Positions 3,117 to 26,564 of a stretch of 37,692 bases of DNA are shown here, in pieces. Each line of letters opens with the position of its first letter. Within the stretch, counting starts at the first letter, position 1. Source of the stretch: a virus. Lineage: Duplodnaviria; Heunggongvirae; Uroviricota; Caudoviricetes. Location: IMG/VR virus record IMGVR_UViG_2541047799_000005, one strand, 5' to 3'. The notes under the pieces were generated by a model, which worked only from the letters and a program-made list of their open reading frames with translations, ran no database searches and had not been told where the DNA came from. Made by a program: the position numbers and the translations under genes.

Positions 3117-5668
3117 CGTCCACCTCCGGAGAACAGACCACCATCACGCATCTGCCCGGTCACAACATCCATTGCCGCCTTACGGGCTACGTCATAAACC
3201 GCCTTCAGCGCCTGTGGCCCTATCTGACCGTTCGTGCCGTCGTTGTTAATCACCACATGGTTATTCTGCTCAAACTTCCCGGACGCCTGCGACCGGCTGT
3301 CCGCCATGCTGCCCGGTGTACCGACATAACCACCGGTGGCATAGCCGCGCATCAGCCGGTAGAGATTCCCCACGCCAATCCGGCTGGTTGCCTCCTTCGT
3401 GAAGACAAATTCACCGCGGTGAACAATCCCCGCTGGCTCATATTTGCCGCCGGTTCCCGTAAATCCTCCGGTTGCAAAATGGAATTTCGCCGCAGCGGCC
3501 TGAATGGCTGTACCGCCTGACGCGGACGCGCCGCCACCAACAGCCCCGCCAATGGCGCTGCCGATACTCCCGACAATCCCCACCATTGCCTGCTTAAGCA
3601 GAATTTCTGTCATCATGGACAGCACGGAACGGGTGAAGCTGCGCCAGTTCTGCTCACTGCCGGTCAGCATCGCCGCCATATTCTGTGCAATACCATCAAA
3701 GGTCTGCGTGGCAGCACTTTTAACCTGCGACATACTGTCCGTGGCGCTCTCTTCCCACTCACTCCAGCCGGACTTCAGGCCTGCCATCCAGCTCCCGCGA
3801 AGCTGGTCTTCAGCCGCCCAGGTCTTTTTCTGCTCTGACATGACGTTATTCAGCGCCAGCGGATTATCGCCATACTGTTCCTTCAGGCGCTGTTCCGTGG
3901 CTTCCCGCGCTGCCTGCCGGTCAGTCAGCCCCCGTTTTTTTGCATCAATGGCGGCCCGTTTTGCCCGTTGTTGCTGTGCGAACTTATCCGCCTGCTGCGC
4001 CAGCGCGTTCAGGTGCTCCTGATAGGTGACCTTGTCGCCAAGTACAGCCAGCTGGCGTTTGTACTCCAGCGTCTCGTCTTTATGCGCCAGCAGGGATTTC
4101 TCCTGTGCGGACAGCTGGCGACGTTGTGCCGCCTCCTCCAGTACCGCGAACTGACTTTCTGCCTTCCACAAATCCCGGCGCTGCTGGCTGATTTTCTCAT
4201 TCGCTCCGGCATGCTTCTCCAGCGTCCGGAGTTCTGCCTGAAGCGTCAGCAGGGCAGCATGAGCACTGTCTTCCTGACGATCGCCCGCAGACACCTTCAC
4301 GCCTTTCGGCTTTTTCAGCGTCGCTTCATAGTCCTTTTTCGCCGCCGCCATCAGCGTGTTGTAATCTGCCTGCAGAATTTTCCCGTCCTTCAGTGCCTTG
4401 TTCAGTTCTTCCTGACGGGCGGTATATTTCTCCAGCGGCGTCTGCAGCCGTTCGTAAGCCTTCTGCGCCTCTTCGGTATATTTCAGCCGTGACGCTTCGG
4501 TATCGCTCTGCTGCTGCGCATTTTTGTCCTGTTGACTCTGCTGCTCAGCCTTCTTTCGGGCGGCTTCAAGCGCAAGACGGGCCTTTTCACGATCATCCCA
4601 GTAACGCGCCCGCGCTTCATCGTTAACAAAATAATCATCCTTGCGCAGATTCCAGATGTCGTCTGCTTTCTTAAACGCAGCCTCTGCCTTAATCAGCATC
4701 TCCTGAGCGGTATCAGGACGACCAATATCCAGCACCGCATCCCACATGGATTTGAATGCCCGTGCTGTCCTGTCTGCCCAGGTTTCCAGCGTGCCCATGT
4801 TCTCTTTCAGGCGTCGGGTCTGGTCATCAAACCCTTTCGTTGCGGCCTCGTTCGCCGCCTGCAATGCCCCGGCTTCATCGCCGGAACGCTGCAACTGAGC
4901 AACATACGCAATCTGCTCCGCCGTCACGTTATGGAACTGGCGTGCCATCGCCGTCAGCCCCGACGTCGGGTCTGTGGTCAGCTTCCCGAAGGCTTCAGCG
5001 ACCTTGTCCACCTCCACGCCGGATGCAGAGGAGAAACGCGCCACACTCTGGCTGATGGACGCAATCTGAGCCTCACCGCTTACCCCCGCCTTAACCAGTG
5101 CGCTGAGTGACTCGCTGGTCTGGTTAAACGTCAGCCCTGCCGCCTGCCCGGCTCTGGACAGGACCAGCATACGATCTGCCGTCAGTCCCGCCTGATTGCC
5201 GGAAAGGACCAGCGTTTTGTTGAAATCGGACAGGGTTGAGTTGCCCTGATACCAGGCATACGCCAGCGCTCCGGTCGCCACCGCCAGCGAGGTGGCCCCC
5301 ACCATCGGCAGGGTGATCGCACCGGCAAGCCCCCGGAACATGGGGATCATCCCGCCGAAGGAGTCCTTCACCTGCCCCCCCTGTTGCAGCAGGATCAGCC
5401 ACGGACTTTGCCCGCCTGCAAGCTGCGTGGCCACGTCAGTGAACTGCGCAGGCAGCATACGCATGGCGGCTTTATACTGCCCGACGGAAATTCCCGCTTT
5501 CTGTGCAGCCAGCGCCTGCCGGTTCATCGACTGTTCAACGACTGCCGCTGTTTTTTTCGCATCACTTTCCGTACCGGAAAAATGACGCCTGACTCTGGCC
5601 ATCTGCTCGTCAAATCTGGCCGCATCCAGACTTAAATCAACGACCAGATCGCCTACCGGTTCAGCCAT
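3113..5668 (-). CDS. H: Tail tape measure protein H
   Basis: 851-aa Ala/Gln-rich coiled-coil ORF between T and M; lambda H is about 853 aa. Confidence 0.9.
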   Translation of the reverse strand: MAEPVGDLVVDLSLDAARFDEQMARVRRHFSGTESDAKKTAAVVEQSMNRQALAAQKAGISVGQYKAAMRMLPAQFTDVATQLAGGQSPWLILLQQGGQVKDSFGGMIPMFRGLAGAITLPMVGATSLAVATGALAYAWYQGNSTLSDFNKTLVLSGNQAGLTADRMLVLSRAGQAAGLTFNQTSESLSALVKAGVSGEAQIASISQSVARFSSASGVEVDKVAEAFGKLTTDPTSGLTAMARQFHNVTAEQIAYVAQLQRSGDEAGALQAANEAATKGFDDQTRRLKENMGTLETWADRTARAFKSMWDAVLDIGRPDTAQEMLIKAEAAFKKADDIWNLRKDDYFVNDEARARYWDDREKARLALEAARKKAEQQSQQDKNAQQQSDTEASRLKYTEEAQKAYERLQTPLEKYTARQEELNKALKDGKILQADYNTLMAAAKKDYEATLKKPKGVKVSAGDRQEDSAHAALLTLQAELRTLEKHAGANEKISQQRRDLWKAESQFAVLEEAAQRRQLSAQEKSLLAHKDETLEYKRQLAVLGDKVTYQEHLNALAQQADKFAQQQRAKRAAIDAKKRGLTDRQAAREATEQRLKEQYGDNPLALNNVMSEQKKTWAAEDQLRGSWMAGLKSGWSEWEESATDSMSQVKSAATQTFDGIAQNMAAMLTGSEQNWRSFTRSVLSMMTEILLKQAMVGIVGSIGSAIGGAVGGGASASGGTAIQAAAAKFHFATGGFTGTGGKYEPAGIVHRGEFVFTKEATSRIGVGNLYRLMRGYATGGYVGTPGSMADSRSQASGKFEQNNHVVINNDGTNGQIGPQALKAVYDVARKAAMDVVTGQMRDGGLFSGGGR

Positions 5669-21887: not shown

Positions 21888-22050
21888 GATTCCTCCTTGC
21901 TGCCAGTCGCAACCATTTTTTATCAACCAAGCTGGCGGTATATCCGAGCAGTGTTGGTATTTCGGATGGCTTCAGCTCAGGTTTACGCTTACGACGATTT
22001 GGTACTCTGTAGATGTGTCCGTTCATGACACGAATAAGCGGTGTAGCCAT
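21880..22050 (-). CDS. ninE: NinE-like small protein
   Basis: Hand-translated 56-aa [59 protein letters not shown], below the ORF-track cutoff; start overlaps the ybcN stop (TAATG) and stop overlaps the ybcO start (ATGGCTGA). Confidence 0.6.
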   Translation of the reverse strand: MATPLIRVMNGHIYRVPNRRKRKPELKPSEIPTLLGYTASLVDKKWLRLAARRNHG

Positions 22051-22505
22051 TACGCCTCCTGCTTGTCGCGCAGCAGCTGGAACTCGCAGCTCTGCGGAAT
22101 AGTCAGGTGGCAGCCAATATTCACCGCCCAGGCTTCAACCTTACACAGGAAGATATACATCTCTCCGGTATCAAGATCGGAGGTATGGCGTAACGACTGG
22201 ATAGTGGTGATCTCACCGGTTACGACATCAACCAGGTCTTTGGTTTCATAACCGAGATATGTGTGTTTGAGAGCATCTTTTACCCAAGCTGGAGTGGCGA
22301 ACGTTTTACCCCTGCTGATGAGGTATTCACTGATTTCGCTGTACCACATGTGGCTGAGTGCATTCTGGGAAAGACTGCGTTTCTCACGCCACGGTTTAAG
22401 CACCATGCGAAAGCATTTGCCTTCCTCCAGATAAGGCTGGATCTGCTGGCCGATAGCGGTGAAGTTACCACGATGCAATTTGATGCCGTCTTGTGGGAGG
22501 TTCAC
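22050..22505 (-). CDS. ybcN: YbcN-like nin-region protein (DUF1367)
   Basis: 151-aa ORF in the conserved ybcN-ninE-ybcO-rusA order. Confidence 0.65.
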
Positions 22506-22539
22506 GCTTCACCTCCGCAGAGGTCAAACGCTGGATGCA

Positions 22540-22623
22540 AAAAATCGCAGGTGCATCTCTGCATCTGTGAAGGGAGAAGAGAGTTTGGATTGTATGTGCG
22601 CATAAACGTCCCCGTTTAGCGCA
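22540..22623. repeat. Copy A of an ~85-bp imperfect direct repeat
   Basis: aaaaaatcgcaggtgcatctctgcatctgtgaagggagaagagagtttggattgtatgtgcgcataaacgtccccgtttagcgca; repeated at 24473-24557 with about 5 mismatches. Confidence 0.85.
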
Positions 22624-22699
22624 GAAGTCACCGGAGTTGTTCAAGCTCCAATGGCATGATTATGGCTGGTTGATTATTGGAAATCAAATGTGCTGAAAA

Positions 22700-23209
22700 T
22701 TAGTCTGCCAAGTCTTCCTCAGTCGCAACTGGGTAATTCCAAATATCAAAAAAAGCTATAGCCTCCTGCCATTTGCTCCATAAGTTATCAAGTACTTGTG
22801 TAGGTTCCGTACTTTTAAAAACAGAATCAGCCGCATCACCGTTATGAACTTCCTCGTACAGTTCCATTATTAGCAGATTAACAAAGTACTGTTTCAACAT
22901 TAATGCCTGATTACCTTCTTTCTGCTGGCTATCCTGCTTGATGAGCTCCATCGCCCGTACTAGGCACCTGATGATATCCGCTGCATCATTAACGCTCCAT
23001 TCAGATCCGCGCTTATCTTTAGCTGATGAATTGGCTCTCTCAGCGCAAGCCTTTAAAGACTCATAAAGGTAAACTCTATTTTGTAGCTGCAGCGCTTTTT
23101 TTGACGTGCACCAACTTGCAAGCGCCGACCCCGCTGCGGCTAATGTGCCAAACGCAGAAATGCCTGCTGCTATTGCACTTAAGTCGGCACTGTCAAAGTT
23201 CCACATCAT
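22700..23209 (-). CDS. Hypothetical protein with one N-terminal hydrophobic helix; unknown function
   Basis: 169-aa ORF; hydrophobic segment AIAAGISAFGTLAAAGSALASW then a charged soluble region; AT-rich; lies between the direct repeats. Confidence 0.5.
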   Translation of the reverse strand: MMWNFDSADLSAIAAGISAFGTLAAAGSALASWCTSKKALQLQNRVYLYESLKACAERANSSAKDKRGSEWSVNDAADIIRCLVRAMELIKQDSQQKEGNQALMLKQYFVNLLIMELYEEVHNGDAADSVFKSTEPTQVLDNLWSKWQEAIAFFDIWNYPVATEEDLAD

Positions 23210-23444
23210 CGTTACACCTTATATAAACACCCCTCAGTAATATCCAATAAGGTATGTGAACAATCAATATAATTTATATCCGTATCGGCACATAGCGATT
23301 TTAATGCTACTGATAATGGTATCTTTTAGATTATATCGTCCAGTTCCAGTACCCGTATTTTATGAAATGGACTCGCACATTACCAAAAAAAATGCCAGCA
23401 CTTCCGTCATCGCAGAATGCTGGCAGTATTTCTAACTAGTGACT

Positions 23445-24053
23445 TTATTGCAACAGATTCTGACGGAAATATGGTAACACACGACTCCACTTATCATCCT
23501 GCCACGGTTGGAATTTTACATGCGCCGTTTCTCTGGCAAGGATTTCTCGCGCCCTGTTGAGTATCCGAGGATATTCTTGTTCGATTGAAGTGAATCTACC
23601 TGCTTCGCGATGCTCTGCGACCTGAAGAAGGGGCGTAACGTTCTGGCAGGCGGTTAACATCGTATCACTTGCTCGCCATAACCAGGCGAGTGTGCAAAGT
23701 TCGTTATCAGTGAATTGTTTTGTGATTGGGGATTGTTGAACTTCTCGATCGAGAATATCCAGAACCCAGCGGCGGAATTCTTTGGCCACAGGAGTACGAG
23801 CAAACATGGCGATCAAATGGGCTCCGCGAAGGCTAAATACTCGAGACTCCTGCATTCCACGAGGGGTGGTCACTTTGACCACCCTTGTCATCATATCTGT
23901 GAATTCATCTGAGTGCCGAGAGTAAATGCGCTGAACTGCTTTATCGTCCGCATATTCCAGTGCTAAACCAACTTCAGTGGCAGTAAGCCAAATTCTGTTA
24001 TTGTGGCAAATCGGGGTAAACGTCGTTTTGTGGAATGCTAATTGAGTAGTCAT
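23445..24053 (-). CDS. Bro-N/AntA-like DNA-binding protein (antirepressor or Roi-like)
   Basis: 202-aa ORF; N-terminal pattern F..F..I...IWLTATEVGLALEY...AKEFRRWVLDIL is typical of Bro-N/antirepressor N-domains; nin-region location like HK022 roi. Confidence 0.45.
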   Translation of the reverse strand: MTTQLAFHKTTFTPICHNNRIWLTATEVGLALEYADDKAVQRIYSRHSDEFTDMMTRVVKVTTPRGMQESRVFSLRGAHLIAMFARTPVAKEFRRWVLDILDREVQQSPITKQFTDNELCTLAWLWRASDTMLTACQNVTPLLQVAEHREAGRFTSIEQEYPRILNRAREILARETAHVKFQPWQDDKWSRVLPYFRQNLLQ

Positions 24054-24472
24054 AGTATCACCTCATCAGGTTAACCATCACCACCAACGACGCCAATCGA
24101 CTGGTGGTGAACTGTGTAAGGTTGGCGTAACCGGCTACTCAAACCCGGCGCTTCCGAAGAAGCCCTCACACAGCCCACCATAATTTGGGCATAGCCGTGC
24201 TTAGCGCACAAAAAAACCGCTTAACGCGGTATGCGTTGAGTAGTATCCCGGGACGCCAATCCCGTGTGCCGATTTTGCGGCAACGCACAGAATATAGCGC
24301 CGGATAAATCATGTCGTCAACCCCAGTAAATGGACACCATGATGATCACATCCATAGCTGCTACAACAGTTACAACTACCTCAGGCCAAAACATAACGAT
24401 TTCCATATCACCTTTAGCCGCCAGACGAATAGAGACTCCCAATTCTGGCTGTCGAAGTAAAACACCGAATGT

Positions 24473-24557
24473 AAAAAATCGTAGGTGCATTTCTGCATCT
24501 GTGAATGGAGATGAGAGTTTGGATTGTGTGTGCGCATAAACGTCCCCGTTTAGCGCA
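24473..24557. repeat. Copy B of the ~85-bp imperfect direct repeat
   Basis: aaaaaatcgtaggtgcatttctgcatctgtgaatggagatgagagtttggattgtgtgtgcgcataaacgtccccgtttagcgca. Confidence 0.85.
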
Positions 24558-25866
24558 ACCCCACCACCGGGTGTTCAGGCCGACAGTAACTATATTATTC
24601 CCTACTGATTTTTGAAAATCAAAGGTCTTTATACGTCACACGAGAGCAAATATTTCCGAAGAAGAAACCTTTCACCTTGAAAGGATAAAGAGTTCATTTC
24701 ATAAATTGAAATATTCAATAAGAATATTGCAAAAAATGAAATTATTTACTAGCGAGTCTATCTAACTGATAATTATGAAGATTGTAAGCGGTAGCAATCA
24801 CCCGCATACACATTGAACAGGATTTAATACAAAACGTCTTAAATTGTCCGTAAGGAATAGCACGAATGACTCAAACTCCTCTATTACTTGCAATCATATT
24901 TTTATTGGTTGTTCTTGTTCTTTATATAGCTGCAATCAAACGCATCAAAAAAATACAATTAGAATTAAGTGATAGCAATCAAAAAAATGAAGAATACAAA
25001 TCTCGCTTTGCAGATTATTTTAATGTAGAAGAAGAATGTAAGAAGCTTATTGAGAAAACAGAGCAAGAATGCTCCATAATAAAAGAAGAATCCCTAAAAG
25101 TAAAAGAAAATGCCAATAATGAACTAACAAACACCATTGAAAAAATGGATGGTATCAATAAACAAATCCAAGAGCTAAGAAGAACTTATAAAGAGAAGAA
25201 AGAAATATATGATAAACTAGTAAGGCAAATTTCTATTTATTCAGAAGATGTTGAGCTAGCCGAACTAGGATTTTACGAACCTCATTTTAATTTTGAAGAT
25301 TCAGAGCAATTTAAAAACAAAATAAAATCCATCAGGGATGAACAGAAATTAATGCTGCGGGATAAAACCCACTCTGGCGCAGTATATTGTACAACCCAAT
25401 GGACTGTTGAAGGCTCTCGAGCAGAGGGTAAAAAAATGACAGACAGAAATATCAGGCTAACTACTAGAGCATTTAATAATGAATGTGATGCTGCAATTAG
25501 CAATTGCACGTGGAAAAACATCACTAAAATGGAAGAACGCATCACAAAGGCATTTGAGGCCATAAATAAACTAAACGAGCAAAATCACATATATATAAAC
25601 ACTAAATACCTCAATAAAAAACTTGAGGAATTGTGGCTTACCCATGAATATCGTGAGCAAAAACAGAAAGAAAAAGAAGAACAGGCAGAAATAAGGGCAC
25701 AAATGAGAGAGGAGGAGCGTGCACAACGAGAAATAGAAAAGGCCATGCAAGACGCAGAGGCAGAAGAGCGCCGTTATAAAAAAGCAATTGAAGCTGCAAG
25801 AAAGGAAATGGAAAAAGTTACTGGTGACATGAAGCAGCGCCTCGAAAATCGGGTAATGACTCCAAC

Positions 25867-26370
25867 TTACTGATAGTGTTTTATGTTCAGATAATGCCCG
25901 ATGACCTTGTCATGCAGCTCCACCGATTTTGAGAACGACAGTGACTTCCGTCCCAGCCTTGCCAGATGTTGTCTCAGATTCAGGTTATGCCGCTCAATTC
26001 GCTGAGTGTAACGCTTGCTGATTACGTGCAGCTTTCCCTTCAGGCGGGATTCATACAGCGGCCAGCCATCCGTCATCCATACCACGACCTCAAAGGCCGA
26101 CAGCAGGCTTAGAAGACGCTCCAGTGTGGCCAGAGTGCGTTCACCGAATACGTGCGCAACAACCGTCTTCCGGAGCCTGTCATACGCGTAAAACAGCCAG
26201 CGCTGGCGCGATTTAGCCCCGACGTATCCCCACTGTTCGTCCATTTCCGCGCAGACGATGACGTCACTGCCCGGCTGTATGCGCGAGGTTACCGACTGCG
26301 GCCTGAGTTTTTTAAATGGCGGAAAATCGTGTTGAGGCCAACGCCCATAATGCGGGCGGTTGCCCGGCAT
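25867..26370 (-). CDS. insB: IS1 InsB (made as an InsAB' frameshift fusion)
   Basis: 167-aa ORF ...[62 protein letters not shown]... matching recalled IS1 InsB. Confidence 0.95.
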
Positions 26371-26564
26371 CCAACGCCATTCATGGCCATATCAATGATT
26401 TTCTGGTGCGTACCGGGTTGAGAAGCGGTGTAAGTGAACTGCAGTTGCCATGTTTTACGGCAGTGAGAGCAGAGATAGCGCTGATGTCCGGCGGTGCTTT
26501 TGCCGTTACGCACCACCCCGTCAGTAGCTGAACAGGAGGGACAGCTGATAGAAACAGAAGCCAC
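26289..26564 (-). CDS. insA: IS1 InsA
   Basis: 91-aa [46 protein letters not shown]... (zinc-finger InsA). Confidence 0.95.

Follow-up and report, generated by a model that had tools for sequence, protein, structure and literature searches.

Why should the early-right region of a lambdoid prophage carry the same short stretch of DNA twice, on either side of a pair of accessory genes? The question is raised by the IMG/VR record IMGVR_UViG_2541047799_000005, a stretch of 37,692 nt (referred to here as the window) that corresponds to a lambdoid prophage at the argU/intD (DLP12) site of Escherichia coli, and that is matched at 100% identity over 3 kb by strain 118UI and about a hundred other genomes. 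An initial examination of the letters alone (the sequence-only reading) had reported two ~85-bp copies in the nin region, differing at about five positions, and had suggested that they might be recombination linkers or duplicated regulatory elements. We consider it probable, with appreciable room for doubt, that the repeat marks a duplicated cis-regulatory leader of the nin operon that is also a substrate for recombination. The downstream copy (copy A) would be the resident leader of ybcN, a gene of the NinB family, and the upstream copy (copy B) would head an antirepressor cassette. The early-right genes lie on the minus strand, high coordinates therefore being upstream, and all features described below are on that strand unless otherwise stated.

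A probable leader present in two copies

A repeat search of the window returned one direct-repeat family, comprising positions 22520-22623 and 24454-24557, which align without gaps over 104 nt at 89% identity with a spacing of 1934 nt. Within this lies an 84 nt core (22540-22623 and 24474-24557) with five mismatches (94% identity), so the repeat first noticed is real, and only the boundary of the second copy needs to be moved by a single base, from 24473 to 24474. The imperfect palindrome reported in each copy is likewise present, as an identical 27 nt (22597-22623 and 24531-24557). The two edges of the repeat differ in character: the high-coordinate edge is sharp and coincides with the end of the palindrome, whereas the low-coordinate edge fades gradually. 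Plain identity stops at the palindrome because the stem of a further hairpin (H1) differs between the copies, and the element itself runs ~65 nt further to a shared TTGATT...ATAAT site. The CACCGG at which both copies had been said to end is indeed common to them, only it forms the 3' arm of H1 rather than a plain end of the repeat. The repeat is only the best-conserved core of a minus-strand element of ~190 nt.

In copy A, this element begins with a promoter-like site (22659..22687) identified by a promoter scan, with a -35 hexamer TTGATT (22687..22682), a 17-nt spacer and a -10 hexamer CATAAT (22664..22659). Two hairpins follow, H1 (22627..22655; GCCAUUGGAG, loop CUUGAACAA, CUCCGGUGAC) and H2 (22597..22623; UGCGCUAAACG-GGGA-CGUUUAUGCGCA), the second being the palindrome described above. 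The H2 loop carries a Shine-Dalgarno-like GGGGA and the 3' arm of H2 contains the AUG (22603..22601) of a short leader open reading frame (ORF). Next comes a linker of 29 nt (22568..22596), rich in C, A and U and with no G in either copy, the composition of which is conserved although its sequence is not, either between the copies or between lineages. A third hairpin, H3 (22567..22548; CAG-A-UGCA GAGA UGCA-C-CUG), is followed by CGA-UUUUUU, in which the run of six uridines (U6) occupies 22544..22539. H3 is terminator-like and lies inside the leader ORF; a terminator scan matched 22563..22546 together with U6, and the extended form of the hairpin has a predicted energy of -9.1 kcal/mol (z -2.5) with an internal A.C mismatch. 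Copy A folds better than shuffled sequences, both over the whole leader (z -2.7) and over H1 and H2 (z -3.6).

The leader ORF (22502..22603) has 33 codons and corresponds to orf33 of phage 82. H3 spans its codons 13-19 and the U-run its codons 20-22, and its stop codon overlaps the GTG start of ybcN in the sequence GTGA. It is annotated as a coding sequence by PGAP in strain 118UI and in a K-12 derivative (33 amino acids, between ybcM and ybcN), and its position is one that we take to be that of ylcH in K-12 DLP12.

Between 24622 and 24473, copy B matches copy A part for part, after which the two diverge beyond the U-run. The promoter-like site (24594..24622; TTGATT-17-AATAAT) is followed by a wobble-rich H1 (24561..24589; UUACUGUCGG, CCUGAACAC, CCGGUGGUGG), in which five of the ten pairs are G.U and which is absent from the minimum-energy fold of copy B. 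H2 (24531..24557) is identical to that of copy A and contains an orf33-like AUG at 24537. H3 and an intact U6 (24473..24504, with U6 at 24478..24473) are also present, the hairpin being weakened by two G>A changes (CAG...CUA) to -4.4 kcal/mol; it was not flagged by the terminator scan. By this comparison copy B is a partial duplicate that keeps the promoter-like site, H1-H3 and U6 and has lost the end of the ORF and its coupling to a following gene. It is probably either a promoter-terminator unit ahead of an independently promoted IsrK cassette or a copy in decay.

In both copies the -35 hexamer forms part of an 18-bp palindrome, TTGATT-N6-AATCAA (22670-22687, perfect, in copy A; 24605-24622, with one mismatch, in copy B), which is kept in E. 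coli-type leaders and not in distant lineages. Matches to this palindrome with up to two mismatches are enriched in the window (nine found, 2.4 expected). The consensus for FNR binding is TTGAT-N4-ATCAA. We considered an FNR site here and rejected it, as the spacing is wrong (TTGAT-N8-ATCAA) and the palindrome is not conserved in the distant lineages.

Conservation, distribution and recombinant alleles

Homologues of the unit were collected from 120 IMG/VR loci identified by a scan for the palindrome, from phage records and from species-representative genomes located via YbcN. In these loci the unit is almost always found directly upstream of ybcN/ninB. Alignment with MAFFT misaligned the phi80-type H2 and a covariance model was therefore built and used for realignment; this model finds 46 copies and nothing else, with no match in lambda, HK022 or the Pantoea ninB loci. 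The unit has no match in Rfam, either with the window searched at the gathering threshold or with the region searched at E values up to 1 or 10.

Covariation in the hairpins spans (pro)phages of Escherichia, Enterobacter, Citrobacter, Klebsiella and Siccibacter. In the 46-copy alignment 94.0% of paired cells can pair, compared with 81.6% in shuffled alignments, and none of 500 shuffles reached the observed value for any measure. Both sides have changed in 21 of the 30 pairs, with 114 double-change cells observed against 23.8 expected, and controls in which the alignment was slid pair at 22-37%. Folding of single sequences recovers H1 and H2 in nearly all of 30 homologues. Read together, the compensatory substitutions point to the hairpins being selected RNA structures.

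Each hairpin has changed in its own way. Compensatory changes are seen at eight of the ten H1 pairs, whilst the loop (C)CUGAACA(A/C) is kept; at least six versions of the stem exist, including GUCACCGGAG/CUCCGGUGAC, CCAUCGUCGG/CCGGCGAUGG, GCCGCCGG/CCGGCGGU, CUGCCAG/CUGGCAG and GUUGUCAG/CUGACAAC. The wobble-rich H1 of copy B can pair only in RNA made from the minus strand, because its G.U pairs would be C.A mismatches on the other. In H2, seven of ten pairs show compensatory changes and at least seven versions are found (GCGCUAAACG, GCAUUUAAG, GCAUAUGAUU, GCGCCAAGUG, GCACUUCGAU and GCGCUUUGAG among them), all of which keep the GGGA loop and the position of the start codon. For H3 the figure is six of nine pairs, the changes being found in Klebsiella (GGC-GAAA-GCC and CCG/CGG), Siccibacter (UGCU-GAAA-AGCA) and Phytobacter, which has a different hairpin in the same place.

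The promoter-like site is conserved in position as well as in sequence. Of 59 distinct upstream sequences, 49 contain TTGAT[TA]-17-[CAG]ATAAT at an unchanging distance from H1 and, in distant lineages, the hexamers and their spacing stay as the sequence of the spacer varies. Across 36 different upstream contexts, conservation climbs from background to above 0.8 exactly at the -35 hexamer (position -64 from H2). The site thus has the form of a predicted sigma-70-type promoter, with -35 and -10 elements 17±1 nt apart at a conserved position.

The leader ORF is conserved in a different sense. In nearly all copies before ninB it has 31-33 codons and its stop overlaps the start of ninB in an RTGA sequence, whereas its amino acids vary freely, including those encoded by the U-run (DFL, NSL, DIL, VFL or GSL). 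In Klebsiella, the compensation in H3 changes the peptide from QMQKCTC to PMAKATG. In copies found before the antirepressor cassette, the ORF either runs on to 40-53 codons or stops early, and orf33 has no match in NCBIfam or PADLOC. With frame and coupling kept and amino acid sequence not, the pattern is as would be expected if it is the act of translation that matters and not the peptide.

The leader is common. Of 5426 complete E. coli genomes, 2886 (53%) carry it, at 3444 places that include K-12 DLP12 and the prophages of O157:H7, and it always forms the right edge of a hypervariable cargo zone that follows ren. P and the leader are separated by 794 to 5577 nt of DNA carrying very diverse genes, and the unit borders variable cargo in 36 contexts; this is what a search of lambdoid prophages had been proposed to reveal. 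Two copies are found in about 300 genomes, O157:H7 included, with a spacing of 1933-2463 nt at the other loci. In O157:H7, PGAP calls the copy-B ORF a truncated pseudogene.

Further insight into the history of the duplication comes from alleles that have one copy only. In four such 'empty' alleles (L025, L038, L089 and L148) the copy-B version of H1 directly precedes ybcN. Two of these, L025 and L089, have the same DUF4041 flank as the two-copy allele, followed by a copy-B-type promoter and H1, a core that agrees with copy A at every diagnostic position and then ybcN; in L025 the change from one type to the other occurs inside the identical H2 segment. From P to the leader there are 4296 nt in strain 118UI (L001) and 2361 nt in L025 and L089, a difference of 1935 nt or one repeat period. 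Because the copies share up to 104 nt, homologous recombination can delete the cassette between them or, acting between two phages, insert it. The hybrids are what homologous recombination between the two copies would be expected to leave behind, or else what the opposite exchange, between phages, would start from, either direction being compatible with the data. The leader therefore has what marks a lambdoid mosaic boundary, a conserved segment at a variable/conserved junction with recombinant alleles that cross inside it. To this extent the suggestion of a recombination linker at cassette boundaries is borne out, by the edge of variable cargo and by hybrid alleles one period shorter, with the difference that the segment looks to be a functional leader and not a dedicated linker.

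Two further loci bear on recombination at this site. In L023 (IMG/VR 3300029241_000020, copies at about 1347 and about 3808) the downstream H2 is of a different version (GCGCUUUGAG/CUCAAAGUGC, with a GUG start) and the linker also differs, so that the copies are near-identical over only about 51 nt, which would lower the chance of losing the cassette by recombination. In L123 (at about 370), unrelated DNA is joined inside the promoter, replacing the -35 hexamer and leaving AATCAA and the -10 in place; on the face of this junction, recombination took place inside the element and not at its edge.

Proposed mode of action and its alternatives

How might such a leader work? We propose that a sigma-70-type promoter would give rise to a transcript with H1 at or near its 5' end, followed by H2, the G-free unstructured stretch and finally H3 with its U-run. 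H2 would display the Shine-Dalgarno sequence of the leader ORF in its GGGA loop and hold the AUG in its stem, limiting initiation at the leader ORF. In a quiet prophage, transcripts arriving from the leader promoter or from the cargo upstream would stop at H3 and the U-run, or through the action of Rho at the G-free stretch, so that the leader would control access to the ninB...Q genes. Readthrough and coupled translation of ninB would become possible once polymerase arrives from pR in antiterminated form, or once ribosomes move through H3 while translating the leader ORF. Since the stop codon of the leader ORF overlaps the start of ninB (GTGA), we infer that ninB and the overlapping genes behind it would depend on translation of the leader ORF. 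Promoter activity, termination and translational gating are all read here from the layout of the leader, as the recombination event is read from the alleles. The rusA gene of K-12 DLP12 is reportedly silent unless an insertion sequence inserts upstream, a 1996 finding credited to Mahdi and co-workers, and a leader that blocks expression in the prophage state would fit with this silence. If the leader does gate expression of nin and Q, it would help to explain the silence of rusA-type genes in prophages more widely.

Parts of this arrangement have been seen before. The orf33 region upstream of orf151 in phage 82 (X92588; Mahdi et al. 1996) is the same element, with 97.8% identity over 135 nt, and that record annotates a putative -35 and -10, the H1 dyad as a 'possible regulator-binding site' and orf33 overlapping orf151. 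In the phi80 record, H2 is annotated as IR4. The comparison with phage 82 and DLP12 that the sequence-only reading had recommended thus finds the same element in both; their records have a single copy and no interpretation in terms of RNA structure, whereas the window has a second, partial copy 1934 nt upstream. Phage lambda has tR2 in its ren-ninB intergenic region, a hairpin and U-run directly before ninB in the same position and orientation as H3 and its U-run; lambda, however, shows no similarity by sequence or by model and is without the promoter, H1, H2 or leader ORF, whereas the hairpin in the window lies inside the leader ORF.

Attenuators offer a second comparison. In attenuators of the pyrBI type, read-through is governed by whether ribosomes translate a short ORF that spans a terminator hairpin, and in the icd-ant operon of phage P1, translation of an upstream ORF prevents premature termination. 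The likeness lies in a short ORF that crosses a terminator-like hairpin and a G-poor stretch and overlaps the next gene. The layout of a leader-peptide attenuator is present in full, a short ORF that runs over the hairpin, ends on the next start and is conserved in frame and length across lineages. Of the explanations offered at the outset, a duplicated regulatory element such as an attenuator is thus also partly right: both copies combine a promoter-like site that is conserved with a leader ORF and three hairpins that covary, and a hairpin with U-run stands at the position of lambda tR2.

Several observations count against a regulatory leader of this kind. Copy B folds no better than shuffled sequence (z -0.65), which makes its function doubtful. 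The covariation counts use an alignment fitted to the model, and the compensations in H3 rest on a few divergent sequences. Transcription is predicted to start 6-8 nt after the -10, which is 3-4 nt inside the H1 stem, and yet the outer pairs of H1 covary; it may thus be chiefly in read-through transcripts that H1 acts. Many of the copies before ninB have a broken U-run (AAUUCUUUG, GAUAUUUUG), and termination at H3 may be weak because of the A.C mismatch and a stability of only -9.1 kcal/mol. Finally, E. coli-type copies energetically prefer an alternative fold of 13 pairs that consumes the U-run, although this fold shows little covariation.

The principal alternative is a gene for a trans-acting small RNA (sRNA) that happens to be present twice, encoding an RNA of ~115 nt with a G-free seed and H3-U6 as terminator, in which case the ORF would be secondary or the RNA dual-function like IsrK. 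We regard this as rather unlikely, though it accounts for a good deal: in each copy ~115 nt separate the promoter-like from the terminator-like site; like the seeds of sRNAs, the G-free linker lacks structure and varies from copy to copy and from lineage to lineage; copy B and other upstream copies retain the promoter, H1-H3 and an unbroken U6 also in cases where the ORF is disrupted; and in L022 and L064 a stop at codon 15 is accompanied by a compensating change in the 3' partner. What it does not lead one to expect, were this purely an sRNA, is that the length of the ORF and its stop/start overlap should be kept almost without exception before ninB; moreover, the U-run is often interrupted there and no Rfam family matches. 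No Hfq or expression evidence was found in its favour, and the prophage sRNAs that were checked map elsewhere (AgvB/AsxR, PMC4104026; Pas). The AgvB and AsxR anti-sRNAs (EcOnc01-03), considered on account of the CA-rich linker, are 51-60 nt long and lie downstream of pR' in a moron site after Q (PMC4104026); they were set aside, the present unit being upstream of ninB, before Q, with a predicted product of about 115 nt. The Pas sRNAs of enteropathogenic E. coli (EPEC), near Q, holin and structural genes and not before ninB, were set aside also. A blend of the two explanations, which we hold to be unlikely, is that the promoter makes a discrete RNA of ~115 nt with a double function, a prophage RNA not described before and present in more than half of complete E. 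coli genomes, acting in cis as attenuator and mRNA of a 33-codon peptide gating ninB...Q and in trans as a regulatory RNA. With copy B, the IsrK/C4 antirepressor switch would then come under that signal as well, and the gating of nin and Q would be tied to prophage induction.

Conserved boundary 'linker' sequences are said to have been described at lambdoid mosaic junctions, by Juhala and co-workers in 2000 and by Clark and co-workers in 2001. A pure linker for cassette exchange, with no regulatory role, would likewise be a conserved segment at a variable/conserved junction with recombinant alleles, and would be consistent with the 36 cargo contexts, the hybrid single-copy alleles and the shuffled combinations in which promoter/H1 types, core variants and tails occur. 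It is nonetheless improbable: the stems change whilst pairing and loops are kept, and selection for identity alone would not give compensatory changes; the spacing of -35 and -10 is kept in distant lineages as the spacer varies, and the frame and coupling of the ORF are kept too. The segment thus resembles a leader under structural selection and not a short patch of homology.

Slightly harder to credit is a processive antiterminator RNA akin to put of HK022, in which H1 and H2 would modify polymerase to read through H3-U and later terminators as far as Q. The put RNAs of HK022 comprise two stem-loops just downstream of a promoter, and the unit too has two conserved hairpins between promoter-like and terminator-like sites. 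It is also found upstream of ninB in phage HK639, which reportedly uses put-like RNA antitermination. In HK022, however, put lies after pL and pR, whereas the unit lies before ninB and its H2 doubles as the ribosome-binding site of the leader ORF, unlike put hairpins. No covariance-model match was found in HK022 between 24000 and 36000, a weak test in that the model was of the leader and not of put and the put sites are unannotated in the record; this interval presumably spans the early-promoter region where putL and putR should lie. Nor is there an H1-like hairpin near the immunity region of the window. A nut- or put-like site was rejected on related grounds: there is no other H1-like hairpin in the window, immunity region included, and no model match in HK022 or lambda. 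Very unlikely, in our view, are operators at the level of DNA, the dyads binding a phage or host regulator as in the 'possible regulator-binding site' of phage 82. H1 is a perfect 10-bp inverted repeat in that phage and the -35 sits in a palindrome that is enriched in the window, but several versions of H1 pair only by way of G.U wobbles (five of ten pairs in copy B), which are C.A on the other strand, the H1 stem varies freely with its loop conserved (the reverse of how operators behave), and distant lineages that keep the -35 and -10 have lost the AATCAA half. Least credible of all are the terminal direct repeats of a mobile element, formed as a target-site or att duplication on insertion of the cassette. 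Direct repeats do lie on either side of an accessory block that only some of the prophages have, but the block encodes no integrase or transposase (only the antirepressor and a phrog_1779 protein), the repeat is a resident leader of which 104-190 nt are shared, the cargo between the copies varies (spacing of 1933-2463 nt), and the antirepressor cassette is also found without an upstream copy, abutting ren (L061, L015). The duplicated leader that doubles as a recombination substrate is the reading we retain.

What is new here should be separated from what was known already, namely the IsrK/C4 cassette, mosaic boundaries, attenuator-like leaders and, from the 1996 phage 82 record, the promoter, dyad and orf33. 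In the searchable library, searches of the literature on ylcH, orf33, HK639 antitermination, phi80 IR4 and the ninB hotspot found nothing on the function of the leader. A leader of three covarying hairpins and a coupled ORF appears not to have been described in Rfam or in the literature searchable to us, and the same holds for how widespread it is and for its duplication before an antirepressor cassette. A vaguely defined nin-region repeat can thus be replaced by a defined leader at the entrance to the ninB...Q genes of 82-like lambdoid prophages, one that forms the fixed right edge of a zone of defence-gene cargo and should be useful in mining that zone, and the duplicated copy of which suggests a route by which antirepressor cassettes are gained and lost.

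The cassette and genes around the two copies

In the direction of transcription the gene order in the window is P, ren, a plus-strand DUF4041 gene (interrupted by IS1), copy B, an RNA region, the antirepressor gene, the ORF for 169 amino acids, copy A, ybcN, ninE, ybcO, rusA, ylcG and Q. With its GTG start at 22505, ybcN (22050..22505) is the first in the overlapping chain ybcN-ninE-ybcO-rusA-ylcG, and a gap of 85 nt separates the end of ylcG from Q (quuD).

Between the copies, the two protein-coding genes are as originally described: the ORF 24053..23445 encodes Bro-N and P22AR_C domains and the ORF 23209..22700 encodes 169 amino acids. They do not, however, form the single two-gene module that had been envisaged, since the gene for the 169-amino acid protein is also found in the absence of the antirepressor and, in O157:H7, is replaced by a HEPN pair; an IsrK/C4/antirepressor cassette and a moron encoding the 169-amino acid protein are separable. 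The region 24054-24472, upstream of the antirepressor gene, had been suggested to be a decayed gene remnant. This is wrong for 24100-24297, which contains the known RNA genes C4 and isrK, and is possible only for ~24323-24453.

The left edge of the cassette proper is a strong promoter-like site, the isrK promoter (24291..24320; TTGACG-18-TATATT). In L061, L030 and L015, homology to the window starts at the -35 of this promoter, with unrelated DNA upstream, and the cassette proper therefore runs from about 24322 to 23445. Downstream of the promoter lies the IsrK sRNA/c4-a1b1 target element (24210..24297), recognised by Rfam and by the terminator scan. The Rfam family isrK (RF01394) matches 24282..24210 at 58.7 bits (gathering score 50), and an intrinsic terminator is found at the end of IsrK (24230..24216, with U7). 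The c4-a1b1 family (RF03163) overlaps the isrK match at 24297..24245 and falls below its threshold (39.6 bits against 46.7; E 7.6e-08). The C4 antisense RNA (RF01695) follows at 24100..24185, with a full-length match (1-87) of 74.8 bits to a gathering score of 45. The ACGCCAA of C4 (24128) has its complement, UUGGCGU, at two places, the IsrK loop (24259) and the antirepressor leader (24096), as judged from the 7-nt 'b'-type match. A 46-codon ORF (24211..24071) from the ORF list lies between the sRNA and the antirepressor gene, which encodes an AnrP-like protein with Bro-N and P22AR C-terminal domains (23445..24053; Pfam, PHROGs).

This arrangement resembles P1 immI and the isrK-orf45-anrP locus of Gifsy-1, in which a promoter, an sRNA/target, a C4-type RNA, a short ORF and an antirepressor gene are likewise found on one strand. 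In Gifsy-1 the isrK promoter drives anrP and IsrK activates translation of anrP via the upstream orf45 (PMC4825925). IsrK and C4 are the known regulators of the antirepressor. No copy of the ninB leader is described ahead of the Gifsy-1 cassette, whereas the window and about 300 E. coli genomes have one there.

Between the duplicated leader and the isrK promoter is a 'tail' of unique sequence (24323..24472). This tail is present in 301 of 5426 E. coli genomes, almost always with isrK-C4 (308 genomes). Copy B together with the ~150-nt tail (24622..24323) is a block separate from the antirepressor cassette. Within the tail is a hydrophobic ORF of 28 codons (24317..24403; MEIVMFWPEVVVTVVAAMDVIIMVSIYWG) with a ribosome-binding site AAGGTGA and a stop codon shared in part with the -35 of the isrK promoter. 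It may encode a small membrane peptide or be a remnant. That it encodes a conserved toxin or membrane peptide of small size was considered and rejected, the ORF being intact in window-type copies and interrupted in O157-type copies, with no family match.

Downstream of the antirepressor gene, an AT-rich spacer of 235 nt (23210-23444) contains a promoter-like site (23386..23357); Rfam finds no match to isrJ in this spacer (the IsrJ sRNA follows anrP in Gifsy-1). The 169-amino acid protein (22700..23209) belongs to phrog_1779, of unknown function, and neither it nor the orf45-like ORF has a match in NCBIfam. In O157:H7 strain Z887 (L150, 5836-6632) its slot before the resident leader is filled by a gene for a HEPN-domain protein and a small partner ORF, which look like a toxin-antitoxin or defence pair.

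On the other side of copy B, the plus-strand DUF4041 gene (24866-25873) matches the anti-phage defence protein PD-Lambda-1 (PADLOC, E 5e-102). In the window it is truncated at codon 335 by an IS1 element (about 25867 to about 26600) with insB (25867..26370) and insA (26289..26564) both on the minus strand; in strain 118UI the gene is intact and encodes 500 amino acids (L001, 22867-24369). More broadly, the cargo zone measures 0.8-5.6 kb (L008, L022, L064, L068, L105, L125, L150 and others), with its right edge always at the leader -35. Defence-type proteins encoded there include PD-Lambda-1, SIR2-domain, HEC-07-like, PRTase_III-A-like and HEPN proteins, and the interval from ren/P to the leader has the appearance of a hotspot for defence genes and morons in 82-like lambdoid prophages. 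Other cargo includes a 1300-amino acid adhesin-like protein with Ig repeats, a recombinase with QacE and, in K-12, ybcL and ybcM.

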